Shown here one piece after another: positions 8,695-24,100 of a DNA stretch of 64,000 bases. The stretch is from Dehalococcoidia bacterium. Lineage in GTDB: Bacteria > Chloroflexota > Dehalococcoidia > UBA2979. The translations under genes were made by a program, and so were the position numbers. The stretch covers positions 18,611 through 82,610 of the forward strand of contig WHSU01000014.1 in assembly GCA_009379925.1 (NCBI GenBank), in the 5' to 3' direction. Under the pieces are notes generated by a model. The model was not told the origin of the DNA, searched no databases, and saw only the letters and a list, made by a program, of their open reading frames with translations. Position 1 is the stretch's first letter. The number at the start of each line of letters is the position of its first letter.

Positions 8695-8928
8695 GTGAGC
8701 AGTCGCGTCAGTCGATCTGTCGTCCGTCTCTGGCGCAGCAAGTCCGTCCGGTACGAGGAGTTGCGCGTGCTCTGGGAGTACGCCGGCGGGACTGCCCGTT
8801 CGACCGGTGGCAGCCACCACGTGTTCCGGTTCGGGTCGGCGCGTGTCACCGTCCCGTTCCGACGTCCGGTGCTCCGACGCGTGTACGTCGAGGCCGCCCT
8901 CGATGCCCTGGAGGAGGCACTGCAATGA
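8695..8928 (+). CDS. hicA: type II toxin HicA family
   Basis: 77 aa with the GGSHHVFRFGSARVTVPFRRP core (GSHxxF...tvP). The stop overlaps the hicB start (ATGA at 8925-8928). Confidence 0.7.
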   Translation: MSSRVSRSVVRLWRSKSVRYEELRVLWEYAGGTARSTGGSHHVFRFGSARVTVPFRRPVLRRVYVEAALDALEEALQ

Positions 8929-9365
8929 CGCAGGCCGAGCCGGATCTGAGGAGTCGAGCGGAGGAGCTGGCCGCCCGGCCCTACCGTCGCGTGCTGATCC
9001 CGGACGAAGACGGCGTCTACTTCGCCGAAGCGCCAGAGCTGCCCGGCGCGATGACCGAGGGCGACTCCCCGCTCGACGCCCTCGAGATGCTGGACGACGC
9101 CATCCTCGCGTGGATCCTCGATGCGCTGGAGGACGGCAAGCCGGTCCCGGAGCCCTCGAGCGACCGTGACGGCCCCAGCGGCCGCTTCGTCGCCCGCGTC
9201 CCTCGCACCCTCCACCGCCGCCTCGCGGAAGCCGCCGAAGCAGAGGGCGTGTCCCTCAACGCTCTGTGCAACGCCTACCTCGCAGAGGGCCCCGCGAGGC
9301 GCGACGTGCTGCGGATCGCCGAGAAGCGGATCGATTACGCGTTGCGGGAGCGGCCAACGGCGTAG
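8925..9365 (+). CDS. hicB: type II antitoxin HicB family (HicB fold + C-terminal RHH)
   Basis: YRRVLIPDEDGVYFAEAPELPGAMTEGDSPLDALEMLDDAILAWILDALEDGKPVPEP followed by RFVARVPRTLHRRLAEAAEAEGVSLNALCNAYLAEG. Confidence 0.8.
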   Translation: MTQAEPDLRSRAEELAARPYRRVLIPDEDGVYFAEAPELPGAMTEGDSPLDALEMLDDAILAWILDALEDGKPVPEPSSDRDGPSGRFVARVPRTLHRRLAEAAEAEGVSLNALCNAYLAEGPARRDVLRIAEKRIDYALRERPTA

Positions 9366-9430
9366 AGGGCATTGCCTGCCCGGCCGACCGGCTGATGTTT
9401 GTTGGCTTCTTGCAAGGACGGGCGGAACGT

Positions 9431-10383
9431 TCACCGGTTCGGAGCTTGTGGAGGTTCAGGTGGCTCAGCAAAGGGCATCGCCGCATAGGCCATCTTGTTC
9501 TGAAGATTCAGATCTCGCGTCACCAGGATGACTGGAGTCCGCGCGTTGACCCGTGAGATCTCGAACGCCGTGGCAACGATGCGATCATCGTTGTTCTGTG
9601 CGTCGAGCCACGGAAAGGCACGTTCCATGTCCGGCTCCAACGCCGAAACCCGAAGGACGCTGATACCCTTCCGAAGGGGCACACCAGCGAGCACGTCCCC
9701 CTGCTTCGATACCCTTTGATGCGGCGGATCAGACTCTCCGCCTTGTCCCGAACTTCCTCGTTGCGATGCTCGATCTTTAGAGTGTCGAGTTCACCGATGA
9801 CGCTGGGCACCAGCTCGAGCGTGAATCGTGGATAGGGGTCGAAGTGCCAGTCCTCAAGTGAGGGATGCCACAGAAGCGCATTCGTGTCCGGAACGAGGAC
9901 TGCCGTACCATCGGCGCGGTCGTCCAGACCCGCAAGCAACGAGGCCCATAGGTCTAATGCGCGACCCGCGGCATTGAGCGCGGCCTCTGGGGTCTTGAAC
10001 CACGTCATGTAGCGCTGCTCGATGAGCGCTGACAGCGTAGATTGTCCCTCGTCGAACCTCTGCAGCTGATGGCTGGAGAGGCTGGCGCGAACGAGTGCCG
10101 CCAAGCGACCGTACTCGTCAAGCAGGCGTGTTTGATACCGACGTCCGTCGACGTTCAACGGCCTCCAAGCGTAGTGCGCACCGAGATATTGTACGCCGCG
10201 ACCTCTGGCGTTGATGTCCCTCAAGTCGTCCGACTGGTTCAGGAGGAAATGCCCAAGCTTCGCTCGGAGCTCCTCAATCTGCGCCAGAAGACGTGAAGAC
10301 AGGCTGTCCGTTCTTGTCTCGTCTACCCCAACGCCACCCGCAGGACCTAGCGATCCTCGATCCACCCTTGCCACCCGACTCAC
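9431..10383 (-). pseudogene. PIN-domain protein with N-terminal helical domain, frame broken at a C5/G5 run
   Basis: ORF 9520..10383 carries VLVPDTNALLWHP...VIGELDTLK...LIRRIKGYRSRG. ORF 9431..9694 continues (D)VLAGVPLRKGISVLRV...DDRIVATAFEI...PVILVTRDLNLQNKM in the next frame. The two meet at the homopolymer 9698-9702 (ccccc). Confidence 0.7.
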
Positions 10384-10455
10384 CGCATAGTCCTAGCTAC
10401 ATCCACTCGTCGAGCCGCAGTTCATGCAAATGGGCCGCGGCGTCCATTACTAACT

Positions 10456-11989: not shown

Positions 11990-12085
11990 CCCGCGAATCG
12001 CGGGCCTCCGCAATCTGCGGATATGTGACTTTCTCCCACATCCGCAGATTGCGGAACGCTTCACCGAAGTGTTACTTAGTAACAC
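11990..12085. promoter_or_regulatory. operator cluster in a divergent control region (three different perfect dyads)
   Basis: CCCGCGAaTCGCGGG (11990-12004). TCCGCAATCTGCGGAT (12007-12022) inverted against ATCCGCAGATTGCGGA (12040-12055), each holding a CCGCA-N3-TGCGG dyad, with centres ~33 bp apart. GTGTTACTtAGTAACAC (12069-12085). Confidence 0.6.
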
Positions 12086-12187
12086 CCTGCGTGCCGTTCA
12101 GAAACTGACCGCAGGGGCGCGCCGCTGAGTCGGGAAGCGTTCGCCGCGACCATCGGGATCTGGCCCTCCGAGAGGTGCCGCCGCGCG

Positions 12188-12274
12188 ATGTTCGCGGTCG
12201 CCGCGACCGCCGTCATCGCCAAGCGGCTGACGTGGGAGTACCTGACGCAATCGGGAGCACAAAGCCCCGCGTAA
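12188..12274 (+). CDS. possible 28-aa hydrophobic peptide
   Basis: Own translation gives MFAVAATAVIAKRLTWEYLTQSGAQSPA*, with GAGAGG 12 nt upstream. It is too short for the ORF track and is speculative. Confidence 0.2.
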   Translation: MFAVAATAVIAKRLTWEYLTQSGAQSPA

Positions 12275-12295
12275 GCGGGAAGGGAGAGGTAAGCG

Positions 12296-12426
12296 TGGTC
12301 GACAAGAAACCACCAAGAGAGCCGACACCTTGCGAGAAGTTCCGCGCGCTCGCAAAGCGCGTCGTGAATACTCCAACGCCGCAGAAGCCTCCGAAGGATG
12401 AGAAAGAGCGGCGCGCATCAGCGTGA
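12296..12426 (+). CDS. possible small basic protein (43 aa)
   Basis: GTG start preceded by GGGAGAGGTAAGC. Sequence VVDKKPPREPTPCEKFRALAKRVVNTPTPQKPPKDEKERRASA. Confidence 0.3.
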
Positions 12427-12465
12427 CCACTCGTCAAAGACTTCACGATCGGGTGGAGATGCACC

Positions 12466-13266
12466 GTGGTCGACATTCTCGACGATGCTAGGTTCCAATT
12501 CGACTCTGCGGAAGAACAACTCGATACCGTCGATGAACTCATTAGCGAGTTCCTCAAGAACGATCCGTATTCCTACGTGGTCGAGCGCAATCGCGTAACG
12601 GGCGAATACCTGTTCCGCGCGATCATCCGCGCGCATCCGGATCGGCGTCTCGTTAAGGTGATCGGGGATACTCTTCGCGACCTCAGAGTCGGACTCGACT
12701 ACGCCGCCCACGCTCTGTCCGAGATCGGGCATCCCGCTCCTGCTGGCACCGAGTTCCCAATCTTTTGGGATGGCGGGCGGTTCAAGGAGCTGGACGGTAA
12801 AGGCGAACCCAAGCGCGGTAGCGGGCTCTACAAAATCCGAGGCATGGATGCTCCCGTACAAGCAGCGATCCAAGGGTTGCAGCCGTTCATGGAAAGTCCC
12901 GGAGATCCGAAGGCCCATCCCCTGTGGATGCTCCACGATCTCGACATCGCCGCGAAGCACAAAAAGCCACTCGTTACCGGCGCGGTTGCGCACGTAGGCA
13001 TGGGGCTCGCTAACGGCTACATCAGCAGCATGAGCATCAGCAACGCGACCGCGGCGATCAAACCGGGGGCGTTTCATGACCGCGCAATAGTCGGTCGCAT
13101 CCTTGCTGCGCCCGATACGAATGTGAGTGTGAATCTCATACCGACCTACGACGTAGCCTTCGATCAGGCAGGCCCCGGCAGGGGAGAAATGGCACGTGGC
13201 GCACTCCGACGCCTTGTGCAACATGTCAAAGTCAATGTCCTCACCGAGTTGGAAAAACTCATCTAG
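12466..13266 (+). CDS. hypothetical protein (266 aa), lower-GC cargo gene
   Basis: Balanced K/E/D-containing composition, with motifs IGDTLRDLRVGLDYAAHAL and PLWMLHDLDIAAKHKKPL. An almost co-extensive antisense ORF (12418..13326) exists, so the strand choice is not certain. Confidence 0.5.
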   Translation: MVDILDDARFQFDSAEEQLDTVDELISEFLKNDPYSYVVERNRVTGEYLFRAIIRAHPDRRLVKVIGDTLRDLRVGLDYAAHALSEIGHPAPAGTEFPIFWDGGRFKELDGKGEPKRGSGLYKIRGMDAPVQAAIQGLQPFMESPGDPKAHPLWMLHDLDIAAKHKKPLVTGAVAHVGMGLANGYISSMSISNATAAIKPGAFHDRAIVGRILAAPDTNVSVNLIPTYDVAFDQAGPGRGEMARGALRRLVQHVKVNVLTELEKLI

Positions 13267-13341
13267 CGACTCGTCGTCTGCGTTCGCATCGCATGGCCGA
13301 TCGACCCCTTCGAGTATATTAGCCAAGGTAAGCTATTCTCC

Positions 13342-13632
13342 TCACCACGGGTGCACCTCCTCGACCTCAGCCGCCCGTGCGGCCTTCGACGCCGGCACGT
13401 CGCCGGCCAGCTCCGCCAGTACGACGATCGCCTGCGCCATGAACAGCAGCCGGCGCTCGATGTGGATGTCCCGTGCGAGGTCGCGGCCCATCTGCTCGCC
13501 AGCGCCGTCGCGCTTGAACGTCGGGACCTCGACGCCAGGCGGCAGCAGCCCGGCCAGCTCCTGCAGGACGGCGTGCACCTCCGCCTGGGCTTCGGCGCGA
13601 CGCTTCATGAGACTCGGAACCGATGCCATCAA
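13342..13632 (-). CDS. hypothetical protein (96 aa)
   Basis: ORF in the minus-strand operon. Its start overlaps the stop of the upstream ORF by 4 nt. Confidence 0.45.
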   Translation of the reverse strand: MMASVPSLMKRRAEAQAEVHAVLQELAGLLPPGVEVPTFKRDGAGEQMGRDLARDIHIERRLLFMAQAIVVLAELAGDVPASKAARAAEVEEVHPW

Positions 13633-21150: not shown

Positions 21151-24100
21151 TTAAGAGCATCCCGACGTGCTGCCGCAGTTCATGCACTTCAGGCAGGTGC
21201 CGTTTCGCACCATCATCAGCAGGCCGCATTCGTCGCAGGGGTCGCCCTCGAAGCCCATCTGGCGTGACTCCGCGGCGTCGAGGCCAAACGAGGGTTCGAG
21301 GACAAGCGTGCTGGTTTCGGTGACGGCCGTGCGCTCGCTGATCGCGGCTGCGGGCGCGGCCGCGACGGGGGCAGGAGTTGGCGTCGGGCCCGCGGCGACC
21401 GGCGCCGGGGCGGGCGCTGCCGAGGGGGCGGCGGGCGCCGCGACTGGCTGAGAGGCGACGGCCTCCGCCGCCACCAGCGCCTCAGCGCGCTCGGTGTCCT
21501 CGTCGGCCGGGTCGGTGGCCAGGGAGATCGGGCCGACGTGCGCCAGGTCGTCGCGGCCGAGGTAGGAGACGGCCAGCTCCCGGAAGATGTAGTCGATGAT
21601 CGAGCTGGAGAACTGGATGCGGCCGTGCCCGGTCACGATCCCCATGGGCTCGAACTTCCGGAAGATAAACGTGTCCACGAACTTCTCGAGCGGCACGCCA
21701 TGCTGCAGGCCCAGCGAGATCGCGATGGCGAAGCAGTTCATGAGGCTGCTGAAGGCCGCGCCGTCCTTCGCAGTGGAGACGAAGATCTCGCCCAGGCGGG
21801 GTCGGCCGGTCTTCGAGTCCACCTCGTCGAAATCACCCGTGTGCAGGTAGATGGTGTGGCCGCCCACCTTCGCCTTCTGGGAGTAGCCGCGCCGCCGTGA
21901 CGGCATCGGCTCCTCCTGGCCGCGCCGCAGTCCGGCGACGATGCGCTGGGCCTCGGCGATGACCGCGTCCTCGACGGCCGATGTCGCCGAGCCCTGTTCC
22001 TCTTCGTCCTCGTCGTCGTACGCGTCGAAGACCTCGAAGGCGGAGGCGGCGAGGGGCTGCGACAGCTTGGAGCCATCGCGGTAGAGGGCGAGGGCCTTCA
22101 CCATGCTTTCGGCGGCCGCCATGTAGACGTCCTTCACGTCCTGGACGGTCGCCTCCTGCGGCATGTTGATCGTCTTGGAGATGGCGCCGCTGATGAACGG
22201 CTGCGCCGCCGCCAGGATGCGCACGTGGGCCATCGCGGCGATGAAGCGCGTGCCGTAGCGCCCGCACTTGTTCGCGCAGTCGAAGACGGCGTAGTGCTCC
22301 TCGCGGAGGTGTGGGGCGCCCTCGATGGTCATGCGACCCATGATGTGGTCGTTGGCAGCGTCCGCCTGCTCGGCCGTGAAGCCGAGTGCCTCCAGCATGC
22401 TGAACTGCGGGTCGGACAGCTGCTCGTCGGTGAGGCCGAGACGGTCGCGGCAGAAGTCGTCGCCCAGCTGCCAGCGGTTGAACACGAACGACAGGTGGAA
22501 GGCGCTGGGCAGCGCGCGCTCGAGGGCGTCGAGCACCGGCTGCGTGAAGCCGCGCTCCGCCAGCGTGTTGCGGTTGATGTACGGCGCGCCCTCGAAGGTC
22601 TGAGTGCCGGCGCAGTACTCGACGATGGCGCGGCTCTGCTCGCGGGTGTAACCCAGGCCCTTGAGCGCTGGCGGCACGGACTGGTTGATGATGCGGAAGT
22701 AGCCGCCGCCCGCGAGCTTCTTGAACTTCACCAGCGCAAAGTCGGGCTCGACCCCGGTGGTGTCGCAGTCCATCAGCAGCCCGATGGTGCCCGTGGGAGC
22801 GATCAGGGTCGCCTGCGCGTTGCGGTAGCCGTGCTGCTCGCCCAGCGAGAGCGCGCGGTCCCAGGCACGCTTCGCGGCTTGCAGCAACGGCGTCGGGCAG
22901 AGGTCCTGCCGGATCGCCTTCGGGATCACCGTCAGCGCCTCGTACTGTTCGCGCGGGGCGTCGTAGGCGGCGCGGCGGTGGTTCCGCATCACGCGCAGCA
23001 TGGCGTCGCGGTTCTCCTCGAAGCGCGGGAAGGCGCCGAGCTGCTCCGCCATCTCCGCGGAGGTGGCGTACGAGACGCCGGTGAGCAGGGCCGTGAGCCC
23101 GCCGGTCCAGGCGAGCGCCTCGGGCGAGTCGTAGGGGATGCCCTGGAGCATGAGTAGCGCGCCGAGGTTGGCGTAGCCGAGGCCGAGCGTGCGGTAGTCG
23201 TATGAGAGCTGTGCGATCTCGCGGCTGGGGAACTGCGCCATCAGCACGGAGATCTCGAGCACGACCGTCCACAGCCGAGTGGCGTGCTCGTAACCCTCCA
23301 GGTCGAACGCGCCGGTCTCCAGGTCGGTGAAGGCGAGCAAGTTCAGCGACGCCAGGTTGCAGGCGGTGTCGTCCAGGAACATGTACTCGCTGCAGGGGTT
23401 GGAGCCATTGATGCGCCCGCCGGCGGGGGCGGTGTGCCATTCGTTGATCGTGGTGTCGTACTGCAGGCCCGGGTCCGCGCACTGCCAGGCCGCGCGGCCC
23501 ATGCGGTCCCACAGGTCCCGGGCACGCACGGTCTTCGCGATCGCGCCGTCGGTGCGGCGCGTGAGGTGCCACTGGCGGTCGTGGTTGACCGCGTCCAGGA
23601 AGTCCGCCGTGACGCGGACGGAGTTGTTCGAGTTCTGGCCGGAGATGGTCTGGTACGCCTCGCCCTGCCAGTCGGTGTCGAACTGGCGGAAGTCGAGCAC
23701 GGGCTCGCCCTGCTGGGCGAGCTGAAGCACTCGCTGGATGTACACCTCGGAGACGCCATCGCGGCGGGCGCGGTTCACCGCCTTGCGGAGCGCGCGGTTG
23801 TCGCGCGGGTCCAGGCCGTCCTGGGCCGCCTCGAAGACCGCCGCCAGGTGACGTCGCGTGACCCGCGAGCCGGTCACCATCGTGGCGACCTTCTGTTCTT
23901 CGGCGGCCTTCCAGTCGATGAAGGTCTCGATGTCGGGATGGTCGGCGTTCAGGATCACCATCTTCGCCGCGCGGCGCGTGGTGCCGCCGGACTTGATCGC
24001 GCCTGCCGCTCGGTCGCCGATCTTGAGGAACGACATCAACCCGGATGACTTGCCGCCTCCGGACAGCGGCTCGTTCTCGCCTCGGATCTCGGAGAAGTTG

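Follow-up and report, generated by a model that had tools for sequence, protein, structure and literature searches.

The stretch analyzed here, 64,000 nucleotides (nt) of contig WHSU01000014.1 from a Dehalococcoidia bacterium (hereafter the window, numbered from its first letter), carries an island of ~10.7 kb that encodes an integrase, a DnaB-like/AAA_25 protein, a zinc-binding open reading frame (ORF), and TerL. Between the leftward packaging-side operon and the leftward helix-turn-helix operon of this island lies a short block that faces the other way. An earlier note, made from the sequence alone, had assigned three ORFs to this block, of 28 aa (12188-12274), 43 aa (12295-12426), and 266 aa (12466-13266), and had read them as a foreign cargo module. 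The three ORFs are present at these positions, and the motifs quoted from the largest, IGDTLRDLRVGLDYAAHAL and LWMLHDLDIAAKHKKPL, occur in its product. The block is also, as described, the only one on the plus strand in the left half of the element, being the sole plus-strand block from the left junction (attL) to the end of the integrase. Its guanine-plus-cytosine (GC) content, noted as visibly lower, is 0.591 over 12185-13350 versus 0.691 for the part of the island to its left and 0.706 to its right (59.1% against 69 to 71%), which is the minimum among all segments of 1166 nt in the 64 kb (mean, 0.690; standard deviation, 0.027). Within this trough, GC runs at 0.55 to 0.61 from 12300 to 13350, with ~0.70 on either side, and the boundaries of the block coincide with it.

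The 28-aa ORF, which the earlier note had taken for the gene of a hydrophobic peptide, is the C-terminal fragment of a transposase of the IS1595 family (DDE_Tnp_IS1595). Its translation matched the C terminus of a transposase remnant in the relative G402 at 19 of 29 residues (66%, E 3e-8), with both sequences ending at the stop codon (MFAVAATAVIAKRLTWEYLTQSGAQSPA in the window, RFKVAARAVIGKRLTWADLTTSEAASTA in G402). In a DNA search of 40 relatives, G402 gave the sole real match, 73% identical to window positions 12190-12362 (E 2e-20); short DNA matches to the transposase-tail region in four other relatives turned out not to be transposases. The G402 locus consists, in order, of the C-terminal 132 residues of an IS1595 transposase, a small ORF, and a gene homologous to that of the 266-aa protein. 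A tail of the same form, GKRLT(W/Y)..L, also ends the transposases at the locus L055 and on contig C42 of the genome to which the window belongs. Upstream of 12188, transposase similarity was looked for and none was found. Downstream of the 266-aa gene, the window and G402 have two flank segments in common, TCTGCGTTCGCATCGC at 13277-13292 and TTAGCCAAGGTAAGCTATTCTCCTCAC at 13319-13345. The transposase tail, the absence of transposase similarity upstream, and the 3' flank held in common with G402 therefore point to 12188-13345 as the 3' part of an IS1595 transporter insertion sequence (IS).

Complete elements of this kind carry homologues of the 266-aa protein, hereafter the passenger, at other loci. 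A co-oriented IS1595 transposase lies 120 to 175 nt upstream of the family gene in L001/L002, L042, L050, L052, L055, and L058/L059, and a remnant of one was found in L038. DDE_Tnp_IS1595 was the commonest Pfam family among 116 neighbors of 20 homologue loci. Inverted repeats (IRs) enclose the transposase and the family gene in L050, L052, L055, and L058, delimiting elements of 2002 to 2130 bp, and these four are bona fide IS1595 transporter ISs. Transporter ISs with passenger genes are a known kind of element in the IS1595 family, according to PMC3129680, which cites Siguier, Gagnevin & Chandler 2009 (Res Microbiol 160:232). The elements analyzed here agree with that kind: a DDE_Tnp_IS1595 transposase is followed by one or more passengers unrelated to transposition inside terminal IRs, with 8-bp target duplications in L050, L055, and L058. 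The gene order of the window block matches that in the 3' part of these intact relatives; the transposase of the block is of the IS1595/ISXO2 type (PF12762), present as a remnant only, and its passenger is downstream of and co-oriented with that remnant, in the same order as in G402 and six intact or partial elements. It differs from a typical transporter IS in being a fossil, with the left end and almost the whole transposase lost, in the extra small basic ORF of its backbone, and in a passenger family without name or described function in the searches made.

Taking these comparisons together, we consider it probable (at about 0.75) that the block is an IS1595 transporter IS from which the left end and the transposase have been deleted, that it retains an intact passenger of a large family, and that it sits in the variable slot of the island. 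By this account, an IS consisting of transposase, small basic ORF, and passenger would have inserted into the island's cargo slot, and a later deletion would have taken the left end and the transposase gene except for its final 29 codons. The element would therefore no longer be self-mobile, and what remains would be a nonfunctional transposase tail, the 43-aa backbone ORF, and an intact passenger gene. Two points weigh against this account. Neither a terminal IR nor a target duplication could be demonstrated in the window, which is attributable to the deletion of the left end; the IR consensus of the relatives was matched there at chance level only. In addition, the right boundary of the IS is supported by one relative only, G402.

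Two further features of these remnants were observed. An imperfect direct repeat of 24 nt (79%; 12137-12160 versus 12194-12217) copies part of the transposase tail 57 nt upstream, near the deletion junction. At the G402 locus (L062:401-1585 / L073:7200-9600), a single ORF joins the IS remnant to an N-terminal portion that is unrelated, low in GC, and marked by the motif RLRNTVVH (Rx4H), and the 2.4-kb low-GC islet that contains it is flanked by strongly G-skewed, GGGG-rich sequence.

Table 1. Features of the block in the window, and elements and small ORFs at homologous loci used for comparison.
Feature	Position or size	Strand	Basis
Probable 5'-truncated IS1595-family transporter IS remnant, as far as traceable	12188..13345	+	Lowest GC; collinear with the G402 remnant
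Transposase remnant, last 29 codons (DDE_Tnp_IS1595; the 28-aa peptide of the earlier note)	12188..12274	+	C-terminus match
Shine-Dalgarno-like sequence GGGAGAGG	12282..12289	+	Sequence reading; 5 nt before the GTG start of the 43-aa ORF
43-aa basic, proline-rich IS-backbone ORF, motif E[KR]F..LAKR[VI]VN.P	12295..12426	+	Homologues in G402 and C42
266-aa passenger, intact member of a large family	12466..13266	+	Full-length alignment; AlphaFold2 model
Conserved IS 3' flank	13277..13345	+	Alignment with G402; similarity stops at 13345
Antisense 302-aa ORF, not a gene	12418..13326	-	No homologue; substitutions favor the plus frame
L058 element	2090 bp		IRs and perfect 8-bp target duplication CAAATTCC
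L050 element	2002 bp		IRs and perfect 8-bp target duplication CAGGATTG
L055 element	2130 bp		IRs and perfect 8-bp target duplication CAAGCCAG
L052 element	2083 bp		Inverted repeats only
Opposite-strand spacer ORF, L001	341-487	-	
Opposite-strand spacer ORF, L052	9796-10011	-	
Opposite-strand spacer ORF, L058	7809-7994	-	
Opposite-strand spacer ORF, L050	10227-10463	+	
Opposite-strand spacer ORF, L042	9617-9796	-	

Counterparts of the 43-aa ORF occupy the corresponding place and strand in G402 and on C42, and there too a G-rich Shine-Dalgarno sequence (GGGAGGGG in G402, GGAGGGG on C42) precedes a GTG start. On C42, the small ORF (VPKKAKTAFERFEQLAKRIVNAPKPPTNHPKD...) accompanies a different cargo, a 336-aa protein. 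Since it recurs there with other cargo, we regard it as a gene of the IS backbone and not as a partner of the 266-aa protein. Codon position 3 was the most variable in all three pairs of small ORFs (13/11/20, 15/14/22, and 19/11/27 for positions 1, 2, and 3), a substitution pattern consistent with translation. We also considered whether the 43-aa and 266-aa ORFs, which share a frame and are separated by a single TGA, might be joined by read-through or fusion. This was rejected: the frames of the two ORFs differ in G402, so their agreement in the window is a coincidence.

Several other small genes and elements came to light in these comparisons. The C42 copy (L087, reverse complement 281-2386) is an apparently intact IS1595 element with the same type of transposase tail and small ORF; its 336-aa cargo may, by its N terminus (IILYQPEDG...TVWLDKARMAELF), resemble RhuM-family proteins. 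A second IS1595 transposase in the same genome is on contig C60 (L088). In five IS1595 elements with cargo of this family, the 120- to 170-nt spacer between transposase and cargo contains a conserved basic ORF of 42 to 60 aa on the opposite strand, with the motif EIP[IV]P[KE]R.D....L.K (Table 1). With a profile built from four of these ORFs, the fifth was recovered (E 2e-8). Variation was again greatest at codon position 3 (8/7/20). The 43-aa ORF of the window (EK..LAK..TP.TP..PKK) has a motif like theirs; similarity between them was not significant by BLAST or by hidden Markov model.

The passenger belongs to a very large family. A profile built from its first matches retrieved 18,839 representatives of clusters at 50% identity with a cutoff of E<=1e-3, of which 2,019 remained with E<=1e-30. 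Nearly all members are 250 to 330 aa long, with about 260 to 290 aa as the usual size. The earlier note had called the protein an orphan without a nameable family: the second part holds, because no source annotates any member beyond "hypothetical protein," and the first does not, with ~19,000 representative clusters recovered. Pfam gave no match for 38 members (18+20), NCBIfam none for the 266-aa protein or the relatives scanned, and PHROG none among 51 members. A sequence search of the PDB with the profile returned 0 matches at E<=10, and no description of the family was found in the literature. Across the family, R74, L77, D78, F97, P98, I99, F100, I135, Q139, P140, L153, W154, L156, K164, and H165 are nearly invariant, within the consensus motifs IGDxLHNLRSxLDHLA, TEFPIF, LQPY, and HPLWxLHxLxxxDKHR. 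The window protein aligned over its full length and keeps all of R74, L77, D78, F97, P98, Q139, P140, L153, W154, K164, and H165. Three members (P0027, P0165, and P0176) are annotated with basic, Pro/Ala-rich N-terminal extensions of 40 to 180 aa, two of which begin MAK[KR]GW..K; these extensions may be real or may be over-extended gene calls.

AlphaFold2 modeled the window protein and an IS-borne relative with a predicted local distance difference test (pLDDT) score of 87.3 and 87.6 and a predicted template modeling (pTM) score of 0.83 and 0.85, respectively. Both models have the same layout: a long helix, a beta hairpin, a second long helix, an irregular region, a helix, a beta sheet, and a C-terminal helix. 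The earlier note had proposed structure prediction and a Foldseek search; with the two models, no significant fold neighbor was found in the PDB (best E 0.55 and 0.24). Against BFVD, Foldseek returned two unnamed viral proteins (E 6e-11 and 1e-5, at 17 to 19% identity). The passenger is thus predicted, with confident models, to adopt an alpha/beta fold without a significant PDB neighbor.

In a sample of the phylum, the family was detected in 26 of 401 genomes (25 of the 218 genera), at times in 2 to 4 copies. Further relatives come from genomes of Chloroflexota and Bacteroidota and from a record labeled Deltaproteobacteria. Other homologues are located in a polysaccharide locus and in an integrase island, and one in a metagenome lies beside genes for an IS4-type transposase, AbiEii, and Hen1. 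One genome holds tandem paralogues (L040:9002-10688), and another a split or frameshifted copy (L037:9527-10550). Cargo and vehicle diverge separately: cargo proteins of different elements were 25 to 36% identical whether their transposases were 41% or 72% identical, the window and G402 were 73% identical in their flanks and 28% in their cargo, and the window and L001 were 58% identical in cargo on different backbones. The cargo has therefore been exchanged or has evolved independently of the backbone, a pattern that is common for conflict genes, short of proof.

The island itself is bounded by a duplicated 3' end of nrdJ, both copies of which encode CMNCGSTSGCS followed by a stop. We therefore conclude that it integrated into the 3' end of this class II ribonucleotide reductase gene and restored the end of the gene. 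At the left junction, the final 11 codons of nrdJ occur a second time (window 10393-10428 and 21151-21186), with an exact core of 15 nt, GCCGCAGTTCATGCA. The genome contains a paralogous island on contig C4 (L085:3314-9300), with a TerL 69% identical to that of the window, collinear small genes, and a replication gene. Collinearity runs down to the gene that matches window 13342-13632, and to the left of that gene the C4 island carries different, lower-GC ORFs, of 248 aa and 193 aa (L085:772-2099). Since different low-GC cargo occupies the same place there, the slot that holds the IS fossil is a variable one. The description of the block as foreign, lower-GC cargo is borne out.

The identity of the genes in the block bears on two other accounts of it. 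The earlier note had suggested a layout that would amount to a native moron of a satellite, its effector accompanied by a basic protein and a small membrane peptide and arranged as a toxin/antitoxin-like or superinfection-exclusion operon. The three ORFs are indeed co-oriented, have Shine-Dalgarno-like sequences, and run opposite to the island operons, but the layout of effector and tiny membrane peptide falls because the 28-aa ORF is a transposase remnant. The 43-aa ORF, moreover, accompanies the IS backbone independently of the cargo, the block shares its gene order with IS1595 elements at other loci, and no conserved small partner specific to the effector was found in the 20 loci. A native operon of this kind is thus very improbable, the module being a truncated IS instead. 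The earlier note had also raised the antisense 302-aa ORF as a competing gene. This ORF exceeds the sense ORF in length, and many homologues likewise have an open antisense frame. However, it had zero homologues among 5.8 billion proteins, a collection in which the plus-strand ORF had 17, at 58% to 29% identity and mostly full length. Sense position 3 was the most variable in every codon-aligned homologue pair tested (0.33/0.24/0.49 for window versus L001), and window and L001 were 58% identical in the sense reading and 44% in the antisense reading. GC by codon position (0.67/0.41/0.67 versus 0.68/0.42/0.65) cannot separate the two ORFs, because they overlap in exact antisense register and have position 2 in common. 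The antisense frame is open because the sense gene lacks TTA, CTA, and TCA codons, an avoidance that also marks IS transposase genes. In a set comprising window 12466-13266 and the family genes and transposases of L001, L042, L043, L044, L050, L052, L055, L058, and L062, the exact antisense frame was fully open in all IS-borne family copies and in some low-GC copies; L052 has 0 TTA/CTA/TCA codons versus 7.3 expected from its neighbors. Homology and substitution pattern thus back the plus strand, and an antisense gene is extremely unlikely.

As to what the passenger does, we tentatively propose that it may be a stand-alone conflict-type enzyme, serving in defense against phage or mobile DNA or in addiction, and most plausibly acting on nucleic acid. 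The features counted toward this proposal are a soluble protein whose two core helices bear the conserved R, D, Q, K, and H beside a variable beta region, the patchy spread across phyla, the carriage by ISs, islands, and perhaps phages, the uncoupling of cargo from vehicle, and the homologue beside AbiEii and Hen1. A candidate site would comprise R74 and D78 on helix 2 together with K164 and H165, where helix 3 ends. Specificity would come from the poorly conserved beta region (approximately residues 170 to 235), and keeping the passenger after loss of the transposase would then benefit the island or the host. The protein may act in defense or abortive infection. The broader proposition, that the family is a new and very widespread single-gene conflict system of unseen fold, with a site of R74/D78 and K164/H165, shuffled across phyla by IS1595 elements and, once the transposase had gone, fixed here in a phage-satellite-like island, is doubtful at present. 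Several results weigh against a conflict function. In the PADLOC-DB 2.0 scan that the earlier note had suggested, no model matched the protein or 50 relatives, barring one chance-level CARF hit (E 0.005), and the PHROG result was likewise negative. tblastn found nothing with three family members in 50,697 phage records and nothing with P0001 in 72,556 plasmid records. The 116 neighbors of the 20 loci were not enriched in defense genes, the only matches being cross-hits of two UvrD-like helicases to the models for GajB and DRT, and several homologues stand solitary among housekeeping genes. Finally, the window protein departs from the consensus at S75V, H79Y, D163A, and R166K.

These departures, at four strongly conserved positions, would also fit a neutral fossil, in which the IS decayed in the island and the passenger is merely undegraded and useless to island and host. 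The deleted transposase and unameliorated GC suggest a recent arrival, and the passenger is present in a single copy in the genome and in none of 40 relatives. Yet its ORF is full length, free of frameshifts and stops, and keeps the nearly invariant residues, and both it and the 43-aa ORF retain a Shine-Dalgarno sequence and start codon. Moreover, Y79 and A163 are traits of a subclade rather than signs of decay, because the closest homologue (58% identity) has both. We therefore regard a useless passenger as rather unlikely. A role for the protein in the IS itself, as a regulator of transposition or a factor in target choice or retention, is improbable. The association with IS1595 transposases is strong and specific, the passenger being always downstream and co-oriented across a spacer of 120 to 175 nt, in 5 of 20 genome loci and 2 metagenome elements; a sixth genome locus has a transposase remnant. 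But the same backbone on C42 holds an unrelated 336-aa gene in that slot, cargo and transposase diverge uncoupled, no transposase is close by in approximately two thirds of family loci, and here the passenger gene survives without any transposase. Nor does a divergent HEPN-type, metal-independent RNase toxin seem likely. The earlier note had judged the protein close to, but short of, a HEPN-like Rx4-6H motif, and this is correct: R74-VGLD-Y79 is followed by the next H at 82, giving Rx7H. The family consensus on helix 2 is R-S-x-L-D-H (Rx4H), to which 33 of 51 members conform, while 49 of 51 have the R. The models contain four long helices, and the HEPN-MNT toxins 7ae9, 7bxo, and 7ae8 recur in the Foldseek lists of both. 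These structural matches are at noise level, however (E 6 to 8; template modeling score, 0.29 to 0.37; root mean square deviation, 10 to 16 Å). Profile-to-profile comparison, which covered DUF4145 alone, gave a probability of 0.2% with hhalign against a DUF4145 (HEPN) alignment from 10 genomes, and none of the 18+20 members matched a HEPN Pfam family even at E 0.1 to 1. A third of members have N, Q, Y, or L in place of the motif H, as the window protein does with Y79. Membership of the passenger in HEPN is thus not supported by motif, by profile, or by four-helix fold.

Compared with known systems, the passenger resembles HEPN RNase toxins (7ae9 and 7bxo; DUF4145) in its mostly helical core with long helices, in the R-x4-H consensus held by two thirds of the family, and in its occurrence as a stand-alone gene on mobile elements. 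It differs from them in lacking significant sequence, profile, or fold similarity, in its large beta insertions, and in its conserved residues: the motif H is not conserved, and the best-conserved pair, K164-H165, is on another helix. Moron-type accessory genes of prophages and phage satellites are often antiphage. The block is like these genes as counter-oriented, lower-GC cargo in the variable slot of an integrative element that encodes packaging and replication functions and lacks virion genes. It differs from them in that delivery was probably by an IS rather than as a module of the island's own, and in that it matches no known defense family.

Read as an IS1595 fossil, the puzzle of a cargo module is explained simply, and two of its three supposed genes are reassigned. 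The family of the third is a large piece of protein dark matter that repeatedly occupies a swappable cargo slot of IS1595 elements. If this family were one of defense or addiction enzymes, small ISs would deliver such genes to satellites and chromosomes alike; its conserved R, D, K, and H residues are direct targets for mutagenesis.

Two features lie outside the block. A 22-nt inverted repeat (91%) at 12007-12055 is upstream of the leftward gene for a 127-aa protein. Just left of the island junction, a tract of lower GC (0.57 to 0.63) at window 8925-10383 contains a HicB-family antitoxin gene (8925-9365, plus strand), an 87-aa ORF encoding a PIN_4 fragment (9431-9694, minus strand), and an overlapping 287-aa ORF (9520-10383, minus strand); this tract may be a decayed toxin-antitoxin or defense islet.

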